63,661 nucleotides of DNA, filler included, from 10 parts of 10 records of this genome joined end to end with filler, not necessarily neighbours in it, one strand, 5' to 3'; shown: positions 4,417-22,601, counted from the whole stretch's first letter. Numbers and translations: made by a program. The notes: generated by a model from the letters alone, not told the origin.

Positions 4417-4973
4417 TGTCTAGACAGAAAAAAACAAAAACCGGTATTAACGGTGATTTGATATTCGCTCGTAAACACAATCGTAAAAATGACGATATGG
4501 AAGGGCGTGAGCGTAAGAAACTTAAAAAGCGTAAAGGTTTAAAAACGGGTAACCGTCACTCTGAAGGTGAAGAGAAGTCGGGATACACAGCGAAGCAAGC
4601 GCGTGACCCGCGTTTAGGCAGCAAGAAAAAGATTCCACTTATCGTGGAAGCACAGAAGAAACCGACAAAACAAGAGCGCCGTATCTCTGCTGAGAAAGAG
4701 CTGGAGATGTTGGAAAATGATGCTCAGCTAAATGTATTGCTTGATCGTATTGATAACGGCGAGAACTTAGGTGCTGGTCTGCAGAAATATGTCGATGAGA
4801 GACTGGATCGCATTGAAATCTTGATGAAGCAGCTCGGTTTGTATGAAGAAGAACCGGAAGAGCTGGAAGAAGAGCAGGAACCGCAGCCTCAAGCGAAAAA
4901 ACGTCAACCTAAAACCGATGACGATTTGCTGGCTGAATTCGCAAACTTAGACATGAATGACTATAAAGGGTAA
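4416..4973 (+). CDS. yihI: Der GTPase-activating protein YihI
   Basis: Basic N-terminus, DPRLGSKKKIPL, ELEMLEND.QLN.LLDR; yihA-csr-yihI synteny. Confidence 0.92.
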   Translation: MSRQKKTKTGINGDLIFARKHNRKNDDMEGRERKKLKKRKGLKTGNRHSEGEEKSGYTAKQARDPRLGSKKKIPLIVEAQKKPTKQERRISAEKELEMLENDAQLNVLLDRIDNGENLGAGLQKYVDERLDRIEILMKQLGLYEEEPEELEEEQEPQPQAKKRQPKTDDDLLAEFANLDMNDYKG

Positions 4974-4982
4974 GGACTTATT

Positions 4983-5471
4983 ATGAACGTAACTCTATTG
5001 GTCATCGTTGGAGCTGCGATCATTGTAGGTTTAGCTGCCTATGCTGGCTATTTGCTGCTGCAATTGAAGAAACAGACCCAGTTACAGCAGCAACATCAGG
5101 CTTTAGCGATAGAAAAACGCAACGCGAATATTTACGAAAGTGTTGATGTTCTCTGTCTTGCGGGTATTCAAGGTCAATGTGATTTGTCAGAAATCAGTAT
5201 TCGTGTGTATTGCATCATGGATTATGTGCAGGGCGATGAGCGGGTAGATTTTGATACAGAGTATCCAGCGATATCTGAGCTTTATCATATAGTGAAAGAT
5301 ATGCCGAGAGGTGAAGCGCGTCAGGATATGGATAAGCAACAGAGAATGAAGCACAACTTGGCTCGCCAAAAGGCAGAAAGCAGGCTCAATGACGCTATCA
5401 TTGAAGAGCTTCAAGCATTGAAGTCCCGTGTTCAGCCAATGAATAATCAAATTACCATTCAAATGGTGTGA
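4983..5471 (+). CDS. DUF2489-family membrane-anchored protein
   Basis: N-terminal TM helix with YAGYLL and a QCDLSE..IR motif; normally follows yihI in Vibrionaceae. Confidence 0.75.
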   Translation: MNVTLLVIVGAAIIVGLAAYAGYLLLQLKKQTQLQQQHQALAIEKRNANIYESVDVLCLAGIQGQCDLSEISIRVYCIMDYVQGDERVDFDTEYPAISELYHIVKDMPRGEARQDMDKQQRMKHNLARQKAESRLNDAIIEELQALKSRVQPMNNQITIQMV

Positions 5472-5475
5472 TAAT

Positions 5476-5503
5476 TATACCTAAGTAACCTCAAGATGCT
5501 GGT
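5476..5503 (+). repeat. Start of an ERIC/IRU-like intergenic repeat, cut by the contig end
   Basis: TATACCTAAGTAACCTCAAGATGC resembles the ERIC-type terminal sequence in Vibrionaceae; the contig breaks inside it. Confidence 0.55.
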
Positions 5504-5603
5504 NNNNNNNNNNNNNNNNNNNNNNNNNNNNNNNNNNNNNNNNNNNNTTAATTAATTAANNNNNNNNNNNNNNNNNNNNNNNNNNNNNNNNNNNNNNNNN
5601 NNN
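5504..5603. other. Artificial contig spacer
   Basis: N44-TTAATTAATTAA-N44 (stop codons in six frames); base composition changes across it. Confidence 0.99.
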
Positions 5604-5633
5604 GCAAATTGGCCATTTGTGGATGGGCACTAT

Positions 5634-6965
5634 CTAGCTCCAGGGGAACGGACTGTGACTGACCGGATGCAGTTCGCCCTTTCGGTAACGGGCGAAGCGA
5701 AAGGGCTCAAGCAGTGCCTGCTTTTCCCCCAAGACCTCCTTGGCCACCAGTTTCCCCACACCGATCATTTTATAGCCGTGGTTGGAATCGAGAATCAAAT
5801 AGCAGTTCTCTTTCATGGCGTCAAAAATGGGAAAACTGTCCGGGGTAAAACAGCCCAATCCGCCGGAGGGTTCGTTTTTGTACATATGGTATTTATCCTT
5901 ATACCGTTTCTGACAATGGGCCAGGGCGGACGTCCACATATGCACGAATTCAGGGGTGACCGTAAAATCCGGTGAATCGATACCGTAGGGATCCACTTTC
6001 ACGTCTCCCGTGACAATGTAGGGCGCCGCTCCGCCCTGAACCCCCCCGAAATTGAAATCGGGCTTATAGTAAATGCCCCACATCTTGTCCGTGATTAATG
6101 ATCCGTCCTCACTGGAGTAGAGGGGCGCTTCCGAATCCACATGAATCACGGGGGGCATTTCGCCTTGGTTGTTCATGGCATAGGCGGGATCCACGCCAAG
6201 GGTTCCCTCCACCAAGCACATGTAGGTCCACATCTTATTTCCGGAATGCAGCGTGCCGTCCGGTCCCATGATGTCCACTTCATCGGGAAGGCCCAGCATA
6301 TCCCACAGACCTTTGGCCCAGGGGCCGGGGCCGGCGATGACCCAGTCGCACTGGATGTCCCCTTTTGATGTTTGAACAGCGGTCACACAATCCTTATGAA
6401 TCTCAAAGCCGGTGACGGAAATCCCGGTCAATATTCGGACCCCCAGGGCTTCGGCCTTGTCCGCCAGCCGGTAGAGGGATTTCATCTGGTTGGCGTACCC
6501 GCCTTTTTTTTCATGCAGAATGGAGGTAATGCCCTTGGCCTGCCAATCGTCAAAGATGTTTTTCCGCATGTAGTTGAGGCACTCTTTTTCGCCTTCGATA
6601 AAAGCGGATTCGTAACCGATATTTTTCTGTTGTTCATAAATCTGGGTCACATCCCCATGCATGGATTCCGGAGATATCTGCATGTACCCCACCGGATGAA
6701 AACCGTAGCTTTCGGTATCTTCTTCCCATACGCGCACGCTGTGGGCCATCAGTTCCCGCATGGCCGGCTGAAAGTAGTTGTTGCGGATGATGCCGCAGGC
6801 AATACCCGACGCGCCGGCCCCGATGGCCGTTTTATCGATGACCAGGATCTCTTTTCCGGTGCCCGCCTTTTTCCGCTTCAATTCTTTTGCCAGGTGCCAG
6901 GCCGTGCTGAGCCCATGGATGCCGGCGCCGATGATAATATATTTGGAATGGGTTGGAATTGCCAT
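5634..6965 (-). CDS. FAD-dependent oxidoreductase, sarcosine oxidase beta / DAO family
   Basis: IIIGAGIHGLSTAWHLA, GASGIACGIIR and TPDSFPI motifs. Confidence 0.8.
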   Translation of the reverse strand: MAIPTHSKYIIIGAGIHGLSTAWHLAKELKRKKAGTGKEILVIDKTAIGAGASGIACGIIRNNYFQPAMRELMAHSVRVWEEDTESYGFHPVGYMQISPESMHGDVTQIYEQQKNIGYESAFIEGEKECLNYMRKNIFDDWQAKGITSILHEKKGGYANQMKSLYRLADKAEALGVRILTGISVTGFEIHKDCVTAVQTSKGDIQCDWVIAGPGPWAKGLWDMLGLPDEVDIMGPDGTLHSGNKMWTYMCLVEGTLGVDPAYAMNNQGEMPPVIHVDSEAPLYSSEDGSLITDKMWGIYYKPDFNFGGVQGGAAPYIVTGDVKVDPYGIDSPDFTVTPEFVHMWTSALAHCQKRYKDKYHMYKNEPSGGLGCFTPDSFPIFDAMKENCYLILDSNHGYKMIGVGKLVAKEVLGEKQALLEPFRFARYRKGELHPVSHSPFPWS

Positions 6966-14356: not shown

Positions 14357-14449
14357 CAGAACAGCGTCTACTCCGGGCAATTCCAATTACCGCGGGGATG
14401 CGCCGTGCGGGTAAAAGCCATCGCTCTCGGAGTCACGGCGCATGACCGG

Positions 14450-16279
14450 TCATTCTCGCGGCCCCGGGACCTCTCCGGACTGCTCCACGGGAAGGGTGAC
14501 TGAAAAGACGGCGCCCTTTCCCGGAGTGCTTTCAAACTCCAGGCTTCCATTCAACTCATCAATGATCTTCTTGGATATGGCCAGACCGAGCCCGGTGTTG
14601 CTTTTCGTTATTTTGGTACTGAAGAAGGGTGTCATAATCTTGTCTTTCACGGCGTCATCTATCCCGTATCCGTTATCCGCGACCAGAATACGAACGCGAT
14701 TCCCGTTCGCAACCAGACGGGTAGTCACCTCGATCGTCCCCTGGGGCAGGACCGCGTCAATGCTGTTGATAATGATGTTCAGAAAGACCTGTTTCAACCT
14801 ATTGGCATCACCGCAGATCTTGACTTCGCTCTTGTCAAAGCGGGATGCGAAATCAATTCTCTTCTCAATCAGTTTATGATGAATCAGGTCCAGTACGTCT
14901 GTGAGCAGATTATGCAGATCAAACACATCGAGGGGGGGCTGGGTTCTGGAAAAGGAAAGGAGATTGGAAACGATGCCGCCGATTCGATCCAGTTCCTTTC
15001 CCATCTTCCGCATCTTTTCCCTTATTCCCGCATCCCTGTCCGTCGACTTCAATTCAATTAATTTGAGATTGTTCTTCACGATGAACAGGGGGTTGTTAAT
15101 CTCATGGGCCACGCCGACCGCCAGTTCGGCGAGGGAGGCATACTTTTCCGTCTCGACCATATAATCGTCCAATCCGCTTTTAAAGGAGTCATCTCTGAAC
15201 AGGATGACCTTGGCGTCGTTCAATCCGGGAAAATAGGATCGCGGAACGAGCGTGACGGAAATGATTCTGCCGTCTGTCAGGGTAATCTCGTTGAATTCGC
15301 TTTCCTGGAATTCTCCGGAGAAGACTCCGGAAGAATCGAAGATCTCAGGGAAAATCGTTTCCTGCAGCCTTTTCCCCAGCCATCCGGAGGAGATCTCAGG
15401 AAACATGGATTTGAGGGACGGATTGAAGTAAAAGATGCGATTTTCCTCTTCTAGGATCAGCATACCTTCTGTCAATCGATCCGTAGTGGATTCCAGGACA
15501 TCCCGCAGAAAACTGATCTTTCGGAGATCATCCCGGTTCTCCTGTTCCACCGAATAGGAGTAGGAGAGCTCGAAGAGCTTATATTTATCAAGTTTACTCG
15601 TCTTCTCCGTCCCGATGCGGATGCCGTTCTTCAGGATAGTGACATGATCCGAAACCTTCAGGATCTCATCAAGATCATGGGAGATGTAGATGAATGAGAC
15701 CCCCTGCTTCTTCAGCGTACTCATAGTGTTGTATACAATTTTCATCTCTCCGGGCGTCAGCTTCTGGGCGATCTCGTCCAGAATGATGATCTTGCTGTCA
15801 GTTATTATGGTCCGTGCGAATTCGACCATATACTGCTGGGCGACGGACAAACGGTAGAGGGGCGTCTCCAGATCGATGGAGTATTCCATACTGTCAAAAA
15901 GCTCGCGCGCCCGGGATTGCATCTCCGAATGCTTCAGCTTCCCCCACCAGTTTTTTATGGGCTTTCCAGAGTAAAGGTACTCCACCGCATTGTAATCGGG
16001 GATGATATTGTTATTCTGATAAACGATAGCGACCTTTTCGTCCATCGCGATCTGGGGCGTCATATAGGAATAGGAGCTATGCCCTATCCTGATAATCCCC
16101 GAATGAGGTCTCAACGCTCCGGCAATAATATTGACCAGAGATGATTTCCCGGCCCGGTGCTCGCCGATCAGGCCGTGAACCTCCCCCTCGAAGAGAGTGA
16201 AATCGACGCCGCGAAGCGCGGCTCTGTGTGCATAGTTATGAAAAATCTTTTCCAGGGAAAGGACGGTCTTATCATTCAT
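14450..16279 (-). CDS. Cytoplasmic sensor histidine kinase with N-terminal sugar-ABC ATPase (NBD) domain and PAS-like domain
   Basis: NBD motifs GEHRAGKSS, IVYQ, LSVAQQ, ILDE and YISHD; kinase motifs AHEINNPL, NIIINSIDA, DNGYGI, PFFSTK and GLGLAI; no TM helix. Confidence 0.88.
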   Translation of the reverse strand: MNDKTVLSLEKIFHNYAHRAALRGVDFTLFEGEVHGLIGEHRAGKSSLVNIIAGALRPHSGIIRIGHSSYSYMTPQIAMDEKVAIVYQNNNIIPDYNAVEYLYSGKPIKNWWGKLKHSEMQSRARELFDSMEYSIDLETPLYRLSVAQQYMVEFARTIITDSKIIILDEIAQKLTPGEMKIVYNTMSTLKKQGVSFIYISHDLDEILKVSDHVTILKNGIRIGTEKTSKLDKYKLFELSYSYSVEQENRDDLRKISFLRDVLESTTDRLTEGMLILEEENRIFYFNPSLKSMFPEISSGWLGKRLQETIFPEIFDSSGVFSGEFQESEFNEITLTDGRIISVTLVPRSYFPGLNDAKVILFRDDSFKSGLDDYMVETEKYASLAELAVGVAHEINNPLFIVKNNLKLIELKSTDRDAGIREKMRKMGKELDRIGGIVSNLLSFSRTQPPLDVFDLHNLLTDVLDLIHHKLIEKRIDFASRFDKSEVKICGDANRLKQVFLNIIINSIDAVLPQGTIEVTTRLVANGNRVRILVADNGYGIDDAVKDKIMTPFFSTKITKSNTGLGLAISKKIIDELNGSLEFESTPGKGAVFSVTLPVEQSGEVPGPRE

Positions 16280-17586
16280 AGAAGATCGTACTTCTTCATA
16301 CGGTTATACAGGGTCTTGCGATCGACCCCCAGGATTTCAGCGGCCCTGGACTTGACTCCGCCGCTCCTCTCCAGGGCGTCGAGTATAGACTTCTTAGCCG
16401 CGTCCCCGGTCAGATCCTCATAGAGGGAAGAGGATGAGATGTTCCCTATCTTGATGTTTCGGTACTGCTCTGGAATATAGCGGTCGCCGACGATCTCGCC
16501 GTCGGCAAAGATGATCAGGCGCTGGACGAAATTCTTCAGTTCCCTGATATTTCCGGGCCAGCTGTGTTTATAGATAAGGTTCCAGACCTCGTCGTTAAAA
16601 TCCCTGACCTGCTTCCCGTACTGACGGTTGAAGGTCCTGATAAAATAGCGGGTCAGGATAGCCAGATCTTCCACCCTCTTCCGGAGAGGGGGCAGATTGA
16701 GGGTAACGACGGAAAGCCTGTAGTAGAGATCTTCCCGGAATCCTCCCCGGGCGATCTCCTCCTGAAAGTTCTTATTCGTCGCTGCGATGATCCGGCAATC
16801 CGCCTTCAGAACGTCGGAGCCTCCCACGCGGCTGTACTTCCCGTCCTGAAGGATCCGGAGCATCTTGGCCTGGGTTTCCATGGACATATCCCCGATCTCA
16901 TCCAGAAAGATGCTGCCCCGGCCCGCCTGTTCGAACAGACCGATCTTCCGCTTGTCCGCTCCCGTGAAGGCGCCCTTTTCATGACCGAAGATCTCGCTCT
17001 CCAGCAGGGTCTGCATGATGGCCGCGCAGTTGACCTTGACGAAAGGCTCCTCTGAACGGTTGCTGTATTGATGGATGGTATTGGCGATCAGCTCCTTGCC
17101 GGTTCCGCTCTCCCCCGTGACCAGGACGGTCGCGTCCGTCCGGGCGGCCTCTCTCGCCATATTCAGGATCTGCAGCATCCTGGCGTCCTGGGTAACGATC
17201 TCCTCCTGTGCTACTGATGATCGCTCCTCCGGTTCCAGGCCCCGGATCTCCTCCAGAAGGGTATCCATATCCACCGGTTTGGTATAGAGATTCAGAGCGC
17301 CCAGCTTCATAACTCTGACCGTATCCTGAATGGAGGCGTAACCGCTGATCACGATAATGGGGATATCGAGGTCAGAACTTTTCATGCCGTCCAGGATCTC
17401 GATCCCGCCGGTTCCCGGCATTTTCAGATCCAGAAGGATAACGTCGGGTCGGTTTTTCCGTATCTTTTCAAGAAACCCGTCGGGCCTGCTGATCGTCCGG
17501 CAGTTGTACCCGTAATACTCAAAGAACTCTTTCAGGGAGAGACAGATTTCCTCTTCATCATCGATGATTAATAGATTGAGAGACAT
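16276..17586 (-). CDS. Sigma54-dependent response regulator (NtrC/AtoC family)
   Basis: REC domain (ILLDLKMP), GESGTGKE, GAFTGA, WPGNIRELKN and Fis-type HTH; ATGA overlap with the kinase. Confidence 0.95.
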   Translation of the reverse strand: MSLNLLIIDDEEEICLSLKEFFEYYGYNCRTISRPDGFLEKIRKNRPDVILLDLKMPGTGGIEILDGMKSSDLDIPIIVISGYASIQDTVRVMKLGALNLYTKPVDMDTLLEEIRGLEPEERSSVAQEEIVTQDARMLQILNMAREAARTDATVLVTGESGTGKELIANTIHQYSNRSEEPFVKVNCAAIMQTLLESEIFGHEKGAFTGADKRKIGLFEQAGRGSIFLDEIGDMSMETQAKMLRILQDGKYSRVGGSDVLKADCRIIAATNKNFQEEIARGGFREDLYYRLSVVTLNLPPLRKRVEDLAILTRYFIRTFNRQYGKQVRDFNDEVWNLIYKHSWPGNIRELKNFVQRLIIFADGEIVGDRYIPEQYRNIKIGNISSSSLYEDLTGDAAKKSILDALERSGGVKSRAAEILGVDRKTLYNRMKKYDLL

Positions 17587-17592
17587 ACACTC

Positions 17593-17621
17593 AGTATGGG
17601 GATTGGTCTTAAATCCGTCAA
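17593..17621 (-). promoter_or_regulatory. Sigma70 promoter abutting the response regulator start (probable leaderless mRNA)
   Basis: TTGACG-N17-CATACT-N6-ATG on the minus strand; no Shine-Dalgarno. Confidence 0.6.
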
Positions 17622-17642
17622 TCTAAATCAATTTAGGGAGAG

Positions 17643-17708
17643 TGGGGAAATAATTCCCCAATTTCGGGGAAGCCTGGGGAATGGGGAAGCTGAGATCCAC
17701 ACTCCCCA
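17643..17708. promoter_or_regulatory. Candidate upstream activator sequence for the sigma54 activator
   Basis: Perfect inverted repeat TGGGGAA-ATAA-TTCCCCA plus three more GGGGAA half-sites, about 85-150 bp upstream of the -24/-12 site. Confidence 0.55.
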
Positions 17709-17790
17709 TGCTCAGCATTCTCCGGAGAAATAAGCCCTATCTCTCAACGGTGTAACAAAATAAATTGTTTTTGTTGTTTTTTATCCTTTT

Positions 17791-17806
17791 TGGTATTCTT
17801 TTTGCA
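17791..17806 (+). promoter_or_regulatory. Sigma54 (-24/-12) promoter of the sugar ABC operon
   Basis: TGGTATTCTTTTTGCA gives GG-N10-GC, 38 nt before the permease ATG. Confidence 0.8.
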
Positions 17807-17843
17807 TTATGAGGGTTGTAATTCATAAAAAGGAGAATGTTCT

Positions 17844-18854
17844 ATGGTAGCGGAGAATTCCGGTTCTGTTGGAAGCGCACATCAAAACTCTCTGGCGAAA
17901 CGTATAAGGAGCCTGGCGAGGGCAGGCGAGTTCGGTGTCTTCCTCGTCCTTTTGGGGATGTGCGTTATAATGAGCTTTGCCAGCCCCTATTTTCTGAAAA
18001 CTGTCAATATCTTTAACATTCTGAGGAACATGTCCACCATCGGAATCATGGCCATCGGGATGACTATGATTATCGTGACGGGGGGGATAGACCTTTCCGT
18101 AGGTTCCCAGATGGCCCTTGCGGGTATGGTCATGGCCCGTATGCTGATGCTCGGCCTGCCGACCCTCCCGGCTCTGCTCATCGGCTTCGCCACAGGCCTT
18201 CTGACCGGCTTTTTCAACGGCTATATTATTTCCCGTCTCAAGGTCATTCCTTTTATCGTAACCCTGGGAATGCTGAGCATTGCCAGAGGATTGACCGTTT
18301 TCTTCGCTACTGGCACGAAGGGTGTCGGGGTTGCTTCCAACATCACAGTACGCGATCCCTTTGTAAACTTTGTTGGCGGCGGCTACCTGGGCCCCATACC
18401 CATTCCCGTTATCATCATGTTCATTTTGGTGTTTGTCTTCTCATACTTCCTGAAGAACACCGTGCTGGGCCGTCAGATCTACGCCATCGGAAGCAACGAG
18501 GAAGCCGCCAGATTGACCGGCGTAAACGTGGACAGGGTCAAGGTTATTACCTACACCTTCATGGGATTCCTCAGCGCTCTATCCGGTATTATCTCCGCCG
18601 GCCTCCTGTCTACCGCAGCCACCAATATCGGCACGGGTACGGAACTGGACGTCGTCGCCGGTGTCGTTATCGGGGGAGCCAGTCTGACCGGAGGTCGGGG
18701 AAGCATCGCCGGTTCCATCATCGGTGCCGCCATCATGGCCGTTCTGAGGAACGCCTTCGTCCTGCTGAAGATGCCAGGCTATATGCAGACCATATCCATT
18801 GGAGTGGTCATCATCCTTGCCGTTACCATGGATACGGTACGGCAAAAAAAGTAA
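17844..18854 (+). CDS. Ribose/xylose/galactoside-type ABC transporter permease (RbsC-like)
   Basis: GGIDLSVGS, IPFIVTLG, AIGSNEEAARLTGVN and ELDVVAGVVIGGASL motifs. Confidence 0.92.
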   Translation: MVAENSGSVGSAHQNSLAKRIRSLARAGEFGVFLVLLGMCVIMSFASPYFLKTVNIFNILRNMSTIGIMAIGMTMIIVTGGIDLSVGSQMALAGMVMARMLMLGLPTLPALLIGFATGLLTGFFNGYIISRLKVIPFIVTLGMLSIARGLTVFFATGTKGVGVASNITVRDPFVNFVGGGYLGPIPIPVIIMFILVFVFSYFLKNTVLGRQIYAIGSNEEAARLTGVNVDRVKVITYTFMGFLSALSGIISAGLLSTAATNIGTGTELDVVAGVVIGGASLTGGRGSIAGSIIGAAIMAVLRNAFVLLKMPGYMQTISIGVVIILAVTMDTVRQKK

Positions 18855-18925
18855 TCGAGGTGGATAACACCCTCTGAAAGAGTGAATCACGGGGATATTA
18901 ATCCCCGAAAAATGAAGGAGATATA

Positions 18926-19978
18926 ATGATGAAAAGAATGTTAGTCGCCGCAATGCTGCTGGTTAGCACCGCCGCTCTGGTCTTTGCCAACGGCCAGGGA
19001 GACAAGCCCGTAAGAGACCTTCCTCCCGGCCCCGAATACGCTTCAGCCGCCCAGCCCTCGGATTCCGGAAAGGTAATGCCGATCAGAAAGTCTGACGAAG
19101 AGATCAGGATCGCCGTACTGGGTCTGGAAAACAACCCCTTCTGGATCCCCGTGAGAGAGGGCGCCGTAGCTGCAGGCAATGAATTGGCGGAGTACAACGG
19201 CAAGGTAGACTGGATCGTTCCCGTGGGGGACGCCCACACCGCCGACGTATTCGGTTCCGCCATCGATGCGGCTATCGCACAGGAGTACGACGCCATCGCC
19301 ACCATCGCCGGTGACAGCGGAATCATACCCTACATCGAAAGAGCCGTGGCCGCCGGTATCCCCGTAGCGACCTTCAACGTAGAGACCGACGAACCCAGCC
19401 CCAGGCTCTTCTTCGTAGGCGCGGACCTGTACAGACAGGGAAAGGCAGCCGGTTCCGCCGTTGCCGAACACTACAAAGCTCAGGGCATCGACAATCCAAG
19501 GATCGCCGTTCTCACAGGTTTTTTCTCTGTTGAGGGACACGAGCTGAGAAGAAAGGGCTTCGAAGAGCAGCTGATGGAAGAGATGCCCGACGCCGTTATC
19601 GTAGGCCGCGTGGAAACCCTGGACAAGGATGACACCGGATATCAGCTCTCTTCAGACTTCATCGTAGCCAATCCCGACCTGAATGGATTCTACTCCGCAG
19701 CCGGCGGCTCAGTAGGCTGCGCCAAGGCCGTAAAGGATAACGGACTGGCCGGTAAGGTAGATGTTTTCTGCTACGACTTCATGGACCAGATCATGGAAGC
19801 CATCAAGGACGGTGTTATCGTAGGCACAATCGGACAGCAGCCCTTCGCCCAGGGACATGACCCCGCCATCAGACTGTTCAACTATCTCGTGGCCGGAGAA
19901 ATCCCCGAAGCGGGACGCATGCTGACCAAGTCCGATTTCGTAACCAGAAAGAACATGAGCCAGTTCGGAGACTGGTAG
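18926..19978 (+). CDS. Sugar ABC transporter substrate-binding protein (RbsB-like)
   Basis: Spirochaete-type VFANGQ signal; NPFW, AGIPVATFN and TIGQQPFAQG motifs. Confidence 0.88.
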   Translation: MMKRMLVAAMLLVSTAALVFANGQGDKPVRDLPPGPEYASAAQPSDSGKVMPIRKSDEEIRIAVLGLENNPFWIPVREGAVAAGNELAEYNGKVDWIVPVGDAHTADVFGSAIDAAIAQEYDAIATIAGDSGIIPYIERAVAAGIPVATFNVETDEPSPRLFFVGADLYRQGKAAGSAVAEHYKAQGIDNPRIAVLTGFFSVEGHELRRKGFEEQLMEEMPDAVIVGRVETLDKDDTGYQLSSDFIVANPDLNGFYSAAGGSVGCAKAVKDNGLAGKVDVFCYDFMDQIMEAIKDGVIVGTIGQQPFAQGHDPAIRLFNYLVAGEIPEAGRMLTKSDFVTRKNMSQFGDW

Positions 19979-19988
19979 GAACAATCTC

Positions 19989-20012
19989 CTCCCCCGCCTG
20001 TCGGCGGGGGAG
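19989..20012 (+). terminator. Intra-operon GC hairpin after the binding-protein gene (mRNA stabiliser or attenuator)
   Basis: CTCCCCCGCC-TGTC-GGCGGGGGAG. Confidence 0.55.
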
Positions 20013-20040
20013 AAAATAAGAAATATCAAGCGAGCAAAGT

Positions 20041-21546
20041 ATGAATGCAGGCAATGAAACTGTTTTAGTCGACTGCAAGGGAATATCAAAACACTTCGGC
20101 GGTCTTATCGCTTTGGACGGCGTTCAGCTGAATATCCGCAGGGGAGAGGTTCATGCTCTTGTCGGAGAAAACGGAGCCGGAAAATCCACCCTTATCAAGA
20201 TACTGGGCGGAATTTATATAAGAGACGAGGGCGCCATCCGTTTTCAGGACCGGGAAGTCGTTTATGACAATCCCGTGGATGCCATCCGGGACGGCATCGC
20301 CATCATCCACCAGGAGCTGTCCGTCCTCTCCCATATGAACGTCATCGAAAATGTTTTTATGGGTCGGATGATCACAAAAAGCGGCATCCTTCAGTGGAGA
20401 GAGATGGAAGAGCTGACCCGCAAGGTCATCGCCATGGTCGGCCTGGACGTGGACCCCTATTGCGAACTGAGCCGATTGAGCATCTCTCAGAGGCAGATGA
20501 TCGAGATCGCCAGGGCCCTGTCTATTGATTCGAAACTGATCATTATGGACGAACCCAATTCCTCGCTCAGCGATCACGAGACGGAAAAGCTATTCGCCGT
20601 AATCCGGGATCTCGTGAAAAAGGGCATCTCCATTCTCTATGTATCCCATAAGATGGAGGAGGTCCTGGAAATCTCCGACCGGATCACGGTCTTCAAAGAC
20701 GGACAATACTCGGGGACCCGAAATACGCAAGAGGTCTCTGTTGAAGATATCATTCAGATGATGGTAGGCCGGGAACTGGACCGGCACTATGAAGAGGGAT
20801 CGGCCACCGACGAGGTGGTACTGGAAGTCAAAGACCTGACGGGCATAGGCTTTCAAAACGTCTCATTCCAGCTCCATAGGGGAGAGGTTCTGGGATTCTC
20901 CGGACTGGTGGGAGCCGGACGGAGCGAGATCTGCCGGGCCATCTTCGGCGCAGAGCCCTTTACAGGCGGTTCCATGACCCTTAAGGGCAAAGACTGCGCG
21001 TTCAAACATCCGGGAGAAGCCGTCCGCGCCGGAATGGCCATGGTTCCCGAAGACAGAAAGAATCTATCCCTCTTTTTAGATCAGCCGATCCGTTTCAATA
21101 TGAATATGGCCAATTACCCCTTTATGACGAAGCGGGGGCTCATCGATTTCAACCGGGCCGAGGGAGAAGTGGATAACTATGTGAACAAGCTCTCCATCAA
21201 ACTGCACAAGAAGGGTGATCCCGTTAAGAGCCTCAGCGGCGGAAACCAGCAGAAGACGGTTCTCTCCCGCTGGCTGTCCACTAAACCGGATGTTCTGATC
21301 CTGGACGAACCCACCCACGGAGTGGATATCGGAGCCAAGGCGGAGATCTACAAACTGATCCGCGACCTGGCAGCCGATGGCATAAGCATCATCCTGATCT
21401 CTTCTGAGCTGCCCGAGATCATCGCCATGAGCGACAGAGTCGCCGTTATGCACGAGGGAACGATGACCGGGATCCTCGGCCGGGACAAGGTGAACGAGGA
21501 AACCATCATGAGTTACGCCACAGGAATTATGGGAGAAGCCGTATGA
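20041..21546 (+). CDS. Sugar ABC transporter ATP-binding protein with two NBDs (RbsA/MglA-like)
   Basis: GENGAGKST; GLVGAGRSE; LSGGNQQK; LDEPTHGVDIGAK. Confidence 0.93.
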   Translation: MNAGNETVLVDCKGISKHFGGLIALDGVQLNIRRGEVHALVGENGAGKSTLIKILGGIYIRDEGAIRFQDREVVYDNPVDAIRDGIAIIHQELSVLSHMNVIENVFMGRMITKSGILQWREMEELTRKVIAMVGLDVDPYCELSRLSISQRQMIEIARALSIDSKLIIMDEPNSSLSDHETEKLFAVIRDLVKKGISILYVSHKMEEVLEISDRITVFKDGQYSGTRNTQEVSVEDIIQMMVGRELDRHYEEGSATDEVVLEVKDLTGIGFQNVSFQLHRGEVLGFSGLVGAGRSEICRAIFGAEPFTGGSMTLKGKDCAFKHPGEAVRAGMAMVPEDRKNLSLFLDQPIRFNMNMANYPFMTKRGLIDFNRAEGEVDNYVNKLSIKLHKKGDPVKSLSGGNQQKTVLSRWLSTKPDVLILDEPTHGVDIGAKAEIYKLIRDLAADGISIILISSELPEIIAMSDRVAVMHEGTMTGILGRDKVNEETIMSYATGIMGEAV

Positions 21547-22601
21547 CAGGGAAAGAAAAGTTGAAAAGAGCATTGAATCATCAGTCGGGACCCGTTCCCG
21601 TGGACTTCGGCTCCAGCGCCGTCACAGGGCTGCATGTCAGCCTGATCCCCCCCCTGAGAAAGCATTACGGACTTGAAAAGGCTCCCGTCAAAGTCGTTGA
21701 GCCTTACGGAATGCTGGGAGAGGTGGACGATGACCTGAAAGAGGCCATGGGCGTGGATACGGACGGCCTCCTTACGAGAGGAACCATGTTCGGCTTCCCC
21801 CTGGAAAACTGGAAGGAGTGGAAAGCCCCCTGGGGACAGGAGGTTCTGGTTCCCGGAGACTTTAACATTACCGCTGAAGGAAAGGACCTCTATATATACC
21901 CCCTGGGCGATACGGACGTCCCCCCTGCCGGCCATATGCCGGACGGAGGATTCTTTTTCGACTCAACCGTCAGGGATTACGGATTCGATGAGGACAATAT
22001 AAAGATCGAAGACAATCTGGAGGAGTTCGGCCTTCTCTCCGACGAAGATCTGTCCTATTACAAAAAGAATAAAAAATGGGTTGATGCCAGTGAAAGGGGC
22101 GTCATGGGGATCATAGGCGGATGCGGGCTGGGGGATATCGCCCTGGTACCCGGCCCCATGATGAAGCATCCCAAGGGTATCCGCGACGTTACCGAATGGT
22201 ATATGTCCACAGCCCTTCGTCAGGATCTGCTCCATGAGATCTTCGACAGACAGACGGACATCGCCCTGGAGAACCTGAAAACCGTGTACTCCCTGCTCGG
22301 CAATTCCATTGAGGTCGCCTATCTATGCGGCACCGACTTCGGCACCCAGGACTCCACCTTCTGCTCCGAGGACACCTTCGACCGGCTCTACAAACCCTAT
22401 TACAGGAAGATGACAGACTGGATCCACGAGAACACCGGGTGGAAGACCTTCAAGCACTGCTGCGGCGCTGTGGAGAACTTCATGGGTCACTTCATCGATG
22501 CCGGATTCGATATAATCAATCCCGTTCAGACATCCGCCGCGGGAATGGACGCCAAGGTCCTCAAGGAGAGATACGGAAAGGATCTGGTCTTCTGGGGCGG
22601 C
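21543..22601 (+). CDS. Uroporphyrinogen decarboxylase / MtaA-CmuA methyltransferase family protein (3' truncated)
   Basis: RALNHQ..PVPVDFGS, GTDFGTQ, FKHCCG, GFDIINPVQ and LVFWGG motifs; runs into the spacer. Confidence 0.8.

Follow-up and report, generated by a model that had tools for sequence, protein, structure and literature searches.

The window, meaning the whole 63,661-nt stretch of DNA that was analysed, consists of short contigs chained by N spacers, and the genes described here sit on their own contig at about 14357-22601. A two-component system read from the minus strand adjoins, and diverges from, a sugar ABC importer operon of the CUT2 class (TC 3.A.1.2). The features are as follows.

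14450..16279, minus strand: fused sensor kinase of 609 amino acids, with an ABC nucleotide-binding domain (NBD), PAS, HisKA (DHp), and HATPase_c (CA) (ORF, Pfam, NCBIfam, AF2 model)
15560..16279, minus strand: the NBD, residues 1-240, of CUT2 NBD1 type (Pfam, NCBIfam, BLASTP, family alignment)
15188..15529, minus strand: PAS-like domain, residues 251-364 (AtoS alignment, NCBIfam)
14453..15187, minus strand: kinase core, DHp with phospho-acceptor H392 and CA with N, G1, and G2 boxes (Pfam)
16276..17586, minus strand: NtrC-type response regulator with REC, sigma54 AAA+ with GAFTGA, and Fis-type HTH (ORF, Pfam, NCBIfam)
17638..17712, no strand assigned: clustered repeats of GGGGAA/TTCCCC, direct as well as inverted and with TGGGGAA-N4-TTCCCCA among them, 80-150 nt upstream of the -24/-12 element
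17791..17806, plus strand: sigma54-type -24/-12-like element, TGGTAT-N5-TTGCA, 38 nt upstream of the permease ATG
17844..18854, plus strand: CUT2 permease (BPD_transp_2, RbsC-like; ORF, Pfam, NCBIfam)
18926..19978, plus strand: periplasmic sugar-binding protein (Peripla_BP_4) with signal peptide (ORF, Pfam, NCBIfam)
20041..21546, plus strand: the transporter's own ATPase, 501 amino acids, with two fused NBDs (GENGAGKST and GLVGAGRSE; ORF, Pfam, NCBIfam, BLASTP)
21543..22601, plus strand: URO-D-like gene overlapping the ATPase stop and cut by the contig end (weak Pfam match, E 0.0028)

The kinase gene is a single open frame in which a CUT2 NBD1-type ABC domain is followed by PAS, HisKA, and HATPase_c. 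ABC_tran was located by Pfam at residues 22-170 (76.8 bits against a cut-off of 25), HisKA at 385-447 (32.2 against 26.9), and HATPase_c at 490-599 (87.9 against 26.4), and the phospho-acceptor histidine together with the N, G1, and G2 boxes of HATPase_c places the protein among HisKA-class histidine kinases. Residues H392, N501, N505, D535, G537, G539, G563, and G565 of this core are invariant across the aligned family. Residues 269-602 align to AtoS (NCBIfam NF008468) with 193 bits, the equivalog cut-off being 646, and on these scores the protein is classed as AtoS-like in its core and not as an AtoS orthologue. The PAS region, which matches PAS_4, PAS_9, or PAS_10 in the relatives, varies most within the family, with a mean pairwise identity of 0.32. 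The AF2 model of the kinase has a mean pLDDT of 80.2, with values of 83-96 over most of the NBD. No hydrophobic segment was found in the kinase by a 19-residue Kyte-Doolittle scan (highest mean 1.35, no window at 1.6), while 59 windows of the permease reached 1.6 in the same scan, and the kinase is accordingly predicted to be soluble, without a membrane segment. An earlier note on this DNA had described a kinase of 609 residues lacking a transmembrane segment, in which an RbsA-type first NBD leads into PAS-like, HisKA, and HATPase domains in one uninterrupted frame, and both descriptions agree with the hydropathy scan, the open reading frame, and the Pfam and NCBIfam assignments.

Residues 1-250 align to the first half of the CUT2 ATPases YtfR, AraG, AlsA, and RbsA in NCBIfam (E 1e-41 to 2e-48), and a BLASTP comparison with NBD1 of the neighbouring ATPase gave 31% identity over 237 residues (E 1e-38), an alignment in which every pair of corresponding motifs quoted in the earlier note can be read. 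RbsA, AraG, AlsA, YtfR, XylG, and MglA resemble the kinase NBD in the A-loop, Walker A Lys/Ser, Q-loop, Walker B, catalytic Glu, and H-loop. They differ from it in that they contain two fused NBDs within about 500 amino acids, whereas the kinase has one, with the kinase module in the place of NBD2. They also carry GENGAGKS and a D-loop DEPT where the kinase has GEHRAGKS and DE[LIV]SNKLTP, the latter being the D-loop form of the whole kinase family; GENGAGKS was counted in 106 of 127 transporter NBD1s. With its single NBD and a best CUT2 match (YtfR) of 165 bits against a cut-off of 850, the kinase falls outside the CUT2 importer ATPases and, judged by its domain content, is not a transporter ATPase.

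The NBD has the Walker A pattern GxxxxGK[ST], the Q-loop Gln, the Walker B Asp with the catalytic Glu, and the H-loop His expected of an ABC domain. Its Walker A, GEHRAGKS (residues 39-46, nt 16142-16165), has Arg in place of the ABC-typical Gly at the fourth position and recurs in 119 of the 120 listed homologues, while Y16 (A-loop), K45, S46, Q88, D168, E169 (the catalytic Glu), and H201 are invariant in all 59 aligned sequences. The domain looks nucleotide-competent, since GEHRAGKS retains Lys and Ser and is fixed, and the A-loop Tyr, Q-loop, Walker B, catalytic Glu, and H-loop do not vary. The earlier note had read the change in the P-loop as pointing away from a motor role, a view that was not borne out: the motif is altered but not degenerate, with Lys and Ser kept and the change fixed throughout the family. 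A canonical LSGGQ signature is absent, the sequence being LSVAQQ here and L-[TS]-x-[AG]-Q-Q across the family; the genuine NBD1 next door is likewise degenerate (LSISQR), and by this comparison a weak signature is the ordinary state of NBD1 in CUT2 importers.

Among 51 positions conserved to at least 80% in 126 transporter NBD1s, the kinase clade keeps 32, has changed but fixed 8, and has relaxed 11. Mean pairwise identity across the family is 0.57 for the NBD, 0.62 for the DHp, and 0.51 for the CA domain. These figures bear on the idea that the NBD is a fossil with a structural role, such as solubility or dimer scaffolding, in what would simply be a cytoplasmic PAS kinase. The degenerate signature motif would suit such a domain, but the catalytic and nucleotide-binding residues are invariant despite about 40% overall identity, the NBD is conserved more than the kinase's own CA domain, and the P-loop (HR) and D-loop (SNKLTP) are fixed in clade-specific forms, which argues for selection for a changed function and not for decay; the idea is thus considered very improbable. 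Conservation within the NBD is lowest (0.45) in the helical subdomain, which should hold the contact region for the permease coupling helix, and this variability fits co-evolution with different permeases and relaxed constraint equally well. The segment following the Q-loop, (A/V)xENIFxG, which presumably faces the membrane domain, is kept in the kinase NBDs as in real NBD1s.

In a FastTree phylogeny, the kinase NBDs formed one clade (26 of 26 rows) with a support of 99, a FastTree value and not a bootstrap, and this clade grouped with NBD1 and apart from NBD2, with NBD1 of the neighbouring ATPase falling outside it. The kinase NBDs thus have, on this tree, a single old origin adjoining the transporter NBD1s. 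A recent duplication of the neighbouring ATPase was rejected, as its 31% identity is matched by the 26-33% to unrelated CUT2 ATPases and its position in the tree is different. None of the 150 best NBD matches joined the same NBD clade to another output; the proteins of odd length among them were either truncated kinase fragments or ordinary two-NBD ATPases to which a permease, a binding protein, or IclR_C is joined.

The reality of the fusion was checked for spanning sequence and for full-length homologues, and both were found. A 3,543-nt contig of another study (run X2) covers 14450-17936 with 20 substitutions and zero gaps, and a contig of a third study crosses the NBD-PAS junction (15481-15938). 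All of the 120 listed homologues (594-640 amino acids) combine PF00005, HisKA, and HATPase_c, and every named one among them is a Spirochaete. Misassembly was rejected on the strength of the spanning contig from a separate study and of the full-length homologues of the same architecture. A family-alignment search of metagenome contigs, one of whose two patterns is a generic kinase motif, kept 80 loci, three of which (L013, L014, and L015) hold full-length members. Genome contigs searched with a single protein and over-specific peptide patterns yielded 12 loci and no family member, viral contigs yielded 13 loci of which none carried the NBD, and none of the 2,072 matching records of a plasmid collection searched in protein mode covered the query to 80% or more. 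RNA run X5 contains three short fragments of the genes for kinase and regulator; DNA carry-over is possible there, so they were not counted as expression. Runs X6-X8, whose word shares are small, were left out of the evidence. Database names for family members are confined to 'ATP-binding protein', 'ABC domain-containing protein', or 'AtoS', generic labels by which the nature of the family is hidden in current databases.

The response regulator gene lies directly upstream of the kinase gene, and direct reading of the sequence confirmed the ATGA by which its stop overlaps the kinase start, as the earlier note had claimed. REC, the sigma54-interaction AAA+ domain with GAFTGA at residue 205, and HTH_8 identify the product as an NtrC-type regulator. 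The earlier note had further held that these two genes diverge from permease, binding-protein, and ATPase genes carrying a -24/-12 promoter, and a -24/-12-like site does stand in the intervening spacer, with the correct GG-N10-GC spacing and two mismatches. With up to two mismatches allowed, the window contains 21 matches where 27 would be expected, a frequency that is nothing unusual, so the weight rests on its position, for which the chance of one match on the right strand of the 257-nt spacer is about 0.04 by our own arithmetic, and on a like site upstream of the permease gene in L013 (cGGCAT-N5-TTGCT). The GGGGAA/TTCCCC cluster is a candidate set of activator-binding sites. Taken as a whole, the arrangement suggests that the kinase and regulator very probably control the adjoining importer operon.

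Linkage in relatives was followed in the window and in the three metagenomic members. The regulator stands directly upstream of the kinase at all four loci, and both loci whose flank reaches the neighbouring gene (the window and L013) show a divergently oriented CUT2 permease gene preceded by a -24/-12 site. L014 breaks off on its upstream side and carries an Opp/Dpp-type ABC operon on its downstream side, and the 586 nt of upstream flank in L015 contain no permease. In addition, the homologues B6241_14620 (kinase) and B6241_14600 (ATPase) share one 9,001-nt contig. Exact coincidences of longest-contig size between kinase and permease homologues numbered 7 against 0.63 expected (P about 5e-6), and those between kinase and ATPase homologues 3 against about 0.7 expected. 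The permease and ATPase homologues of highest similarity, at 86% and 78% identity and on a 90,984-nt contig, have no size-matching kinase homologue among the 120 listed, and this contig is a possible counter-example to the linkage. The linkage to ABC permeases on which the proposal of the earlier note depended therefore holds in so far as the importer adjoins the kinase wherever this can be read, although the readable loci are few.

The main reading, to which a probability of roughly 0.5 is assigned, is that the two-component system takes its input via the captured NBD1-type domain and controls the adjoining CUT2 importer from the putative sigma54 promoter. Since the NBD stands in the sensor's place and the importer and its regulator adjoin, the kinase probably reads the transporter itself. 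The kinase dimer would present two NBDs, which would sit on the coupling helices of the permease dimer in place of the motor ATPase. Docking of a sugar-loaded binding protein on the permease would then make the ATP-bound NBDs close, and the closure would be relayed by a conserved helix (residues 232-244) and then by the PAS domain, reaching the DHp helices, where autophosphorylation would be switched; the phosphorylated NtrC-type regulator would activate the operon of permease, binding protein, and ATPase. Closing of the NBDs upon a loaded binding protein is the ordinary behaviour of an importer. A more tentative element of the scheme is that the kinase replaces the motor on a sub-population of permease dimers only, forming a dedicated signalling complex of binding protein, permease, and kinase in which NBD closing is read as kinase activity; in such a complex the ATP sites would become slow and switch-like through the fixed Arg of the P-loop and the degeneracy of the signature.

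Docking of the NBD on the permease coupling helix had been proposed in the earlier note, and a complex prediction for NBD residues 1-250 with the permease returned a median score of 0.55, reported as 'weak support' without contacts and in a band where, by the tool's own account, errors outnumber correct calls unless the pairing was already likely, against 0.00 for the best of three controls. Partner pLDDT stood at 80 or higher, and 92% or more of the contacts were shared between runs. In the tool's calibration, 58 of 80 solved complexes attained its mark, as did 2 of 110 mismatched pairs, with scores of 0.60 or lower given by only 7 of the 80 solved complexes and by both passing mismatches. 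The score is unlikely to be the recall of a like complex, because no solved homologue of the permease was found by profile search; any NBD1-like domain may nevertheless dock by general likeness. Docking with the signal running from transporter to kinase is, on this modelling, held at slightly less than even odds. As the transporter has a complete two-NBD ATPase, it lacks no subunit that the kinase could supply, and any docking by the kinase would be in competition with that ATPase.

The same observation gives room to a reversal of the signal, whereby the kinase on the permease throttles transport post-translationally in competition with the motor ATPase, while transcription is set via a PAS signal. 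A full transporter ATPase makes any second NBD-bearing protein a competitor, and for KdpD-KdpFABC an extract of PMC11018627 reports a kinase that controls its pump both at the level of transcription and after translation. The proposal demands the same unproven docking as the main reading and a second unproven sensor in addition, and is regarded as improbable.

Isolated ABC NBDs clamp together around ATP, and histidine kinases are dimers. The NBD may hence be an ATP-dependent dimerisation switch or energy sensor that makes no contact with a transporter, the NBD pair clamping ATP so that the kinase tracks ATP/ADP, and sugar, if sensed at all, being read by the cytoplasmic PAS domain after basal import. 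Every ATP-contact residue is invariant, the kinase dimer keeps two NBDs always close, the PAS domain as the variable and possibly ligand-specific part could be the real ligand sensor, the importer already owns a motor, and the verdict of the docking prediction was 'weak support', all of which this explanation accommodates. The signature that each ATP sandwich needs is, however, degenerate and variable (L-[TS]-x-[AG]-Q-Q), the (A/V)xENIFxG segment is kept as in real NBD1s, the source of the NBD is NBD1 of the very importer class next door, and an energy sensor gives no reason for linkage to one transporter class. The explanation is therefore deemed rather unlikely, and input from the importer through the captured NBD is preferred.

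Several known systems invite comparison with the preferred reading. In BceAB-BceS of Firmicutes, according to extracts of two reports (PMC6978683; 10.1101/2020.02.28.969956), sensing is done by the transporter, whose activity is read by a kinase that in turn induces the transporter genes. This logic is shared with the proposal made here, but BceS is a separate membrane protein on an exporter-type permease, whereas the present kinase is soluble, the importer depends on a binding protein, and the NBD is covalently captured. With a kinase lacking a hydrophobic segment and a permease of the BPD_transp_2 family, the system may work like a Bce flux-sensing module without being a member of that group, in which an intramembrane-sensing kinase of two transmembrane helices is paired with a BceB-type permease whose extracellular loop is large. 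In the maltose system of E. coli (MalK-MalT), the NBD subunit of an importer likewise carries regulatory information to the transcription machinery; MalK, however, is a working motor whose C-terminal extra domain acts on a separate STAND activator, while here an extra NBD copy is placed on a histidine kinase and the motor is separate. For CbrA/CrbS, extracts of PMC7096432 and PMC5715377 describe an SLC5 solute-symporter domain that serves as the input of the sensor kinase to which it is covalently joined. These proteins fuse a membrane transport domain via STAC, and Pfam detected neither an SLC5 symporter nor a STAC domain in the present kinase, which is thereby set apart from them; only the cytoplasmic ABC ATPase domain is fused here, so the membrane part must come from a separate protein.

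There is a likeness in gene arrangement with XylFII-LytS, tabulated in an extract of PMC8050422 as controlling xylFGH, and with a further locus, L070, in both of which a two-component system stands beside a sugar ABC operon, as here. L070 encodes a homologous sigma54 regulator (38% identity) and an operon of the same gene content as the window, namely binding protein, ATPase, permease, and a clear URO-D gene at the end. Its kinase, by contrast, is a HAMP-containing protein of 713 amino acids whose gene lies beside an extra binding-protein-like gene. Kinases of this type are anchored in the membrane and contact, on its outer side, a binding protein dedicated to them, whereas the present kinase has the NBD in that position and no membrane segment; by this comparison the NBD stands where a sugar sensor outside the cytoplasm would otherwise be.

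That cells sense through transporters is established, although to our knowledge always via separate proteins whose contacts are hard to define. If the reading is true, the natural covalent fusion of an importer NBD to a kinase names the interface outright, as the NBD groove facing the coupling helix, and offers a simple system for studying how NBD closure becomes a signal. Spirochaetes depend heavily on sugar ABC importers, and the reading would explain how importers are induced without a membrane sensor in many of them. Modular biosensors might also be designed that borrow the specificity of binding-protein-dependent importers. No paper on an NBD-kinase fusion was found in literature searches, and a mode of sensing with an NBD in the sensor's place appears unstudied. 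Lastly, Atlas leads, all under 0.9, suggest ABC-domain fusions with other kinase types in Actinomycetota and Chloroflexota, and should these exist, the same solution would have been reached several times.

The fused kinase lies on its own contig (approximately 14357-22601), in a window built as a chain of short contigs with N spacers. Six genes were found there, located as open reading frames and, for the three transporter components, also by Pfam and NCBIfam; they are listed with the control elements between them and the corresponding element of L013, a metagenome-contig locus with a full-length kinase relative:

14450-16279, minus strand: fused kinase, 609 aa
16276-17586, minus strand: regulator, 436 aa
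17638-17712: dense GGGGAA/TTCCCC half-sites, one pair forming the perfect palindrome TGGGGAA-N4-TTCCCCA; 80-150 nt before the -24/-12 element
17791-17806: -24/-12-like element TGGTAT-N5-TTGCA, upstream of the permease gene
17844-18854, plus strand: permease, BPD_transp_2
18926-19978, plus strand: binding protein, Peripla_BP_4
20041-21546, plus strand: ATPase, 501 aa, two NBDs
21543-22601, plus strand: URO-D-like gene (uroporphyrinogen decarboxylase / methyltransferase fold), truncated; last in the operon, overlapping the sugar ATPase stop
L013: -24/-12-like element cGGCAT-N5-TTGCT, upstream of the L013 permease gene

N runs occur over 5504-57305 of the window, with paired 44-N spacers between nine or ten short contigs, and G+C is about 0.45-0.57 on the contig of the finding against about 0.62 after 22702, the site of a GlmU-like gene. 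Because the segments joined by spacers differ in G+C, genes across spacers should not be read as neighbours.

The kinase was resolved by Pfam and NCBIfam into ABC_tran (residues 22-170), an AtoS-like PAS region, HisKA (385-447), and HATPase_c (490-599), and a scan of the protein for hydrophobic segments found none. Residues 1-250 align with YtfR, AraG, AlsA, and RbsA, all from CUT2 sugar importers, over the first of their NBDs; the identity to NBD1 of the neighbouring ATPase is 31% (E 1e-38), and that alignment contains all the motif pairs quoted in the earlier note. The regulator, whose stop overlaps the kinase start as ATGA, comprises REC, sigma54 AAA+, and HTH_8 domains (Pfam, NCBIfam) with GAFTGA at residue 205, which bears out the architecture first noticed. 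A 3,543-nt contig from run X2, of a different study, covers 14450-17936 with 20 substitutions and zero gaps, a stretch that holds the entire kinase and regulator together with the promoter region, and a contig from a third study (15481-15938) crosses the NBD-PAS junction; together with 120 full-length homologues built alike, these spanning contigs exclude an assembly artefact as the source of the fusion.

Of 7,999 candidates scored in the homologue search, 1,169 reached E 1e-10 or better. All of the best 120 (594-640 aa, 37-100% identity) combine PF00005, HisKA, and HATPase_c, and the organism names among them are all Spirochaete, being Spirochaetaceae, Spirochaetales, Spirochaetia, or Treponemataceae. 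In the protein Atlas, a Spirochaetota cluster of 62 members has the same architecture (score 0.98); the Atlas leads to other ABC-domain kinase fusions score below 0.9.

Across a family alignment of 59 sequences (the window kinase and 58 of the 120 listed homologues), Walker A reads G-E-H-R-A-G-K-S without exception, the exact octapeptide recurring in 119 of the 120, whereas GENGAGKS is found in 106 of 127 transporter NBD1s. An arginine as the fourth residue of Walker A is also known from type I thymidylate kinases and does not preclude the binding of nucleotide. Tyr16 (A-loop), Q88, D168, E169, and H201 are invariant in the aligned kinase NBDs. The family signature is degenerate (L-[TS]-x-[AG]-Q-Q), which is the usual state of NBD1 in the CUT2 importer class; the neighbouring ATPase has LSISQR in NBD1 and the canonical LSGGNQQ in NBD2. 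Transporter NBD1s (126 sequences) have 51 positions with conservation of 80% or more; of these the kinase clade keeps 32, swaps 8 for another fixed residue (fixed replacements include N41H, G42R, and T171S), and relaxes 11. Mean pairwise identity is 0.57 for the NBD, 0.62 for DHp, 0.51 for CA, and 0.32 for PAS, the most variable domain; inside the NBD it is lowest in the helical subdomain (0.45).

An exhaustive search with residues 1-249 returned, among its best 150 matches, 15 with a single NBD stretch (36-73% identity; twelve of 588-612 aa and three truncated proteins) and 135 multi-NBD ATPases at 26-33% identity. In a FastTree phylogeny of 63 rows (SH-like supports only), all 26 kinase NBDs form one clade (support 99) that groups with NBD1, apart from NBD2 (support 100), with the neighbouring ATPase NBD1 placed elsewhere; at support 29, the tree does not separate a position as sister to the NBD1s from one nested among them. 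The kinase NBD thus looks like a working domain of old, single origin, and that it should be a mere fossil is very improbable. In P0369 (686 aa), one of the best matches, an IclR_C regulator domain is attached to a CUT2 ATPase with two NBDs, a further case of a sugar-importer motor joined covalently to a transcription-factor module.

The kinase is directly preceded by the sigma54 regulator in all four loci available (the window, L013, and two further metagenome-contig loci, L014 and L015). The flank beyond the regulator reaches the next gene in the window and L013, and in both a divergent CUT2 permease gene lies behind a -24/-12-like element. The GGGGAA/TTCCCC half-sites are probably activator sites, lying in the expected position; L013 has different repeats at a like position, TGTGTGCTG twice. 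The L014 contig ends within the regulator, and a convergent Opp/Dpp-type peptide ABC operon lies downstream of the kinase (L014 2701-8137, minus strand: SBP_bac_5, two BPD_transp_1 permeases, and a fused double ATPase with oligo_HPY), followed by a molybdopterin oxidoreductase and an MttB-family methyltransferase. No permease match was found in the 586 nt upstream in L015; this flank (L015 1-586) resembles part of a transposase by eye, and L013 has a DDE transposase gene (4558-5709, minus strand) downstream of the kinase. Some copies of the regulator-kinase module adjoin mobile elements.

By their protein-table names, a kinase homologue (B6241_14620) and an ATPase homologue (B6241_14600) share one 9,001-nt contig; the tags, assuming that they step by five, fit an uninterrupted row of five genes like that of the window. 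Linkage was also gauged indirectly from exact coincidences of longest-contig sizes between the 120 kinase homologues and the 120 best permease or ATPase homologues, counts that set a minimum and do not amount to a census: seven for the permease, where near-misses predict 0.63 (Poisson P ~5e-6), and three for the ATPase against about 0.7 expected. For the closest transporter relatives (90,984-nt contig), no kinase on an equal-sized contig was found among the 120 listed homologues.

The comparator locus L070 pairs a homologous sigma54 regulator (38% identity) with an operon of binding protein, ATPase, permease, and URO-D, the last a clear family member (E 8.8e-62; L070 12424-13500). Its 713-aa kinase (HAMP, PAS, HisKA, HATPase_c) is encoded after an extra Peripla_BP_4 gene. 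In this known layout the membrane kinase has a dedicated binding protein as its extracellular partner; an example is XylFII-LytS, which controls xylFGH (PMC8050422). In the window's family the NBD occupies the place of that extracytoplasmic sensor, which suggests that external sugar remains the signal, now perceived by way of the transporter.

In ordinary importers, binding protein that carries its ligand favours the closed state of the ATP-bound NBD dimer (PMC6906923). In the mechanism we infer, the kinase dimer would offer two NBD1-like domains to occupy both coupling helices of the permease dimer, NBD closure would be passed on to the DHp helices, and the phosphorylated regulator would turn the operon on. 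A helix at the NBD C-terminus (232-244), conserved in the kinase family only, leads into PAS and DHp. Complex prediction (50 permease sequences against 58 for NBD residues 1-250) scored 0.54, 0.55, and 0.59 in three runs, against 0.00 for the best of three controls; for the docking proposed in the earlier note the tool returned "weak support". In the tool's calibration, 58 of 80 solved complexes attained its mark, as did 2 of 110 mismatched pairs; among those that attained it, only seven of the solved complexes, but both mismatches, had scores of 0.60 or less. The modelled partners had a pLDDT of 80 or more and contact agreement between runs was at least 92%, no contact list being given. A profile search found no solved permease homologue and the best solved relative of the NBD is a LivG-type protein (4.8e-20), so recall of a like complex is unlikely; any NBD1-like domain might nevertheless dock by general likeness.

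Docking with transporter-to-kinase signalling is given a probability of roughly 45%. Against it, the importer already has its own full motor, sensing may in truth fall to the PAS domain, conservation within the NBD is lowest in the helical subdomain, and few neighbourhoods are readable. An ATP clamp or energy sensor working with no transporter contact, which the invariant nucleotide-site residues would also fit, is unlikely though the strongest competitor; the reverse direction, with the kinase throttling the transporter, is more doubtful still, and part of the probability falls to none of these readings.

A system of this kind would function like Bce-type flux sensing (PMC6978683) and MalK-MalT (PMC6906923), without membership of either. 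A transporter module is likewise fused to a kinase in CbrA/CrbS (PMC7096432, PMC5715377), but the part fused here is a soluble ATPase domain. The full-text literature, with most subscription journals outside its coverage, yielded no paper on an ABC-NBD kinase fusion, and "fused" and "nucleotide-binding" are both absent from a 2020 review of protein-activity sensing. The fused kinase is a real, conserved variant of transporter-coupled sensing, apparently an unstudied one, with a mechanism that is so far a proposal.

Near-identical DNA over 14450-19000 (at least 99% in most pieces) occurs in runs X2, X3, and X4 of three further studies, two of which are labelled coral metagenome; the source organism may be coral-associated. 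Two positions lack one base in single low-depth contigs of X3: 14910, within the kinase CA domain (depth 3.2 of 12), and the intergenic 17728. These may be assembly errors or strain variants.
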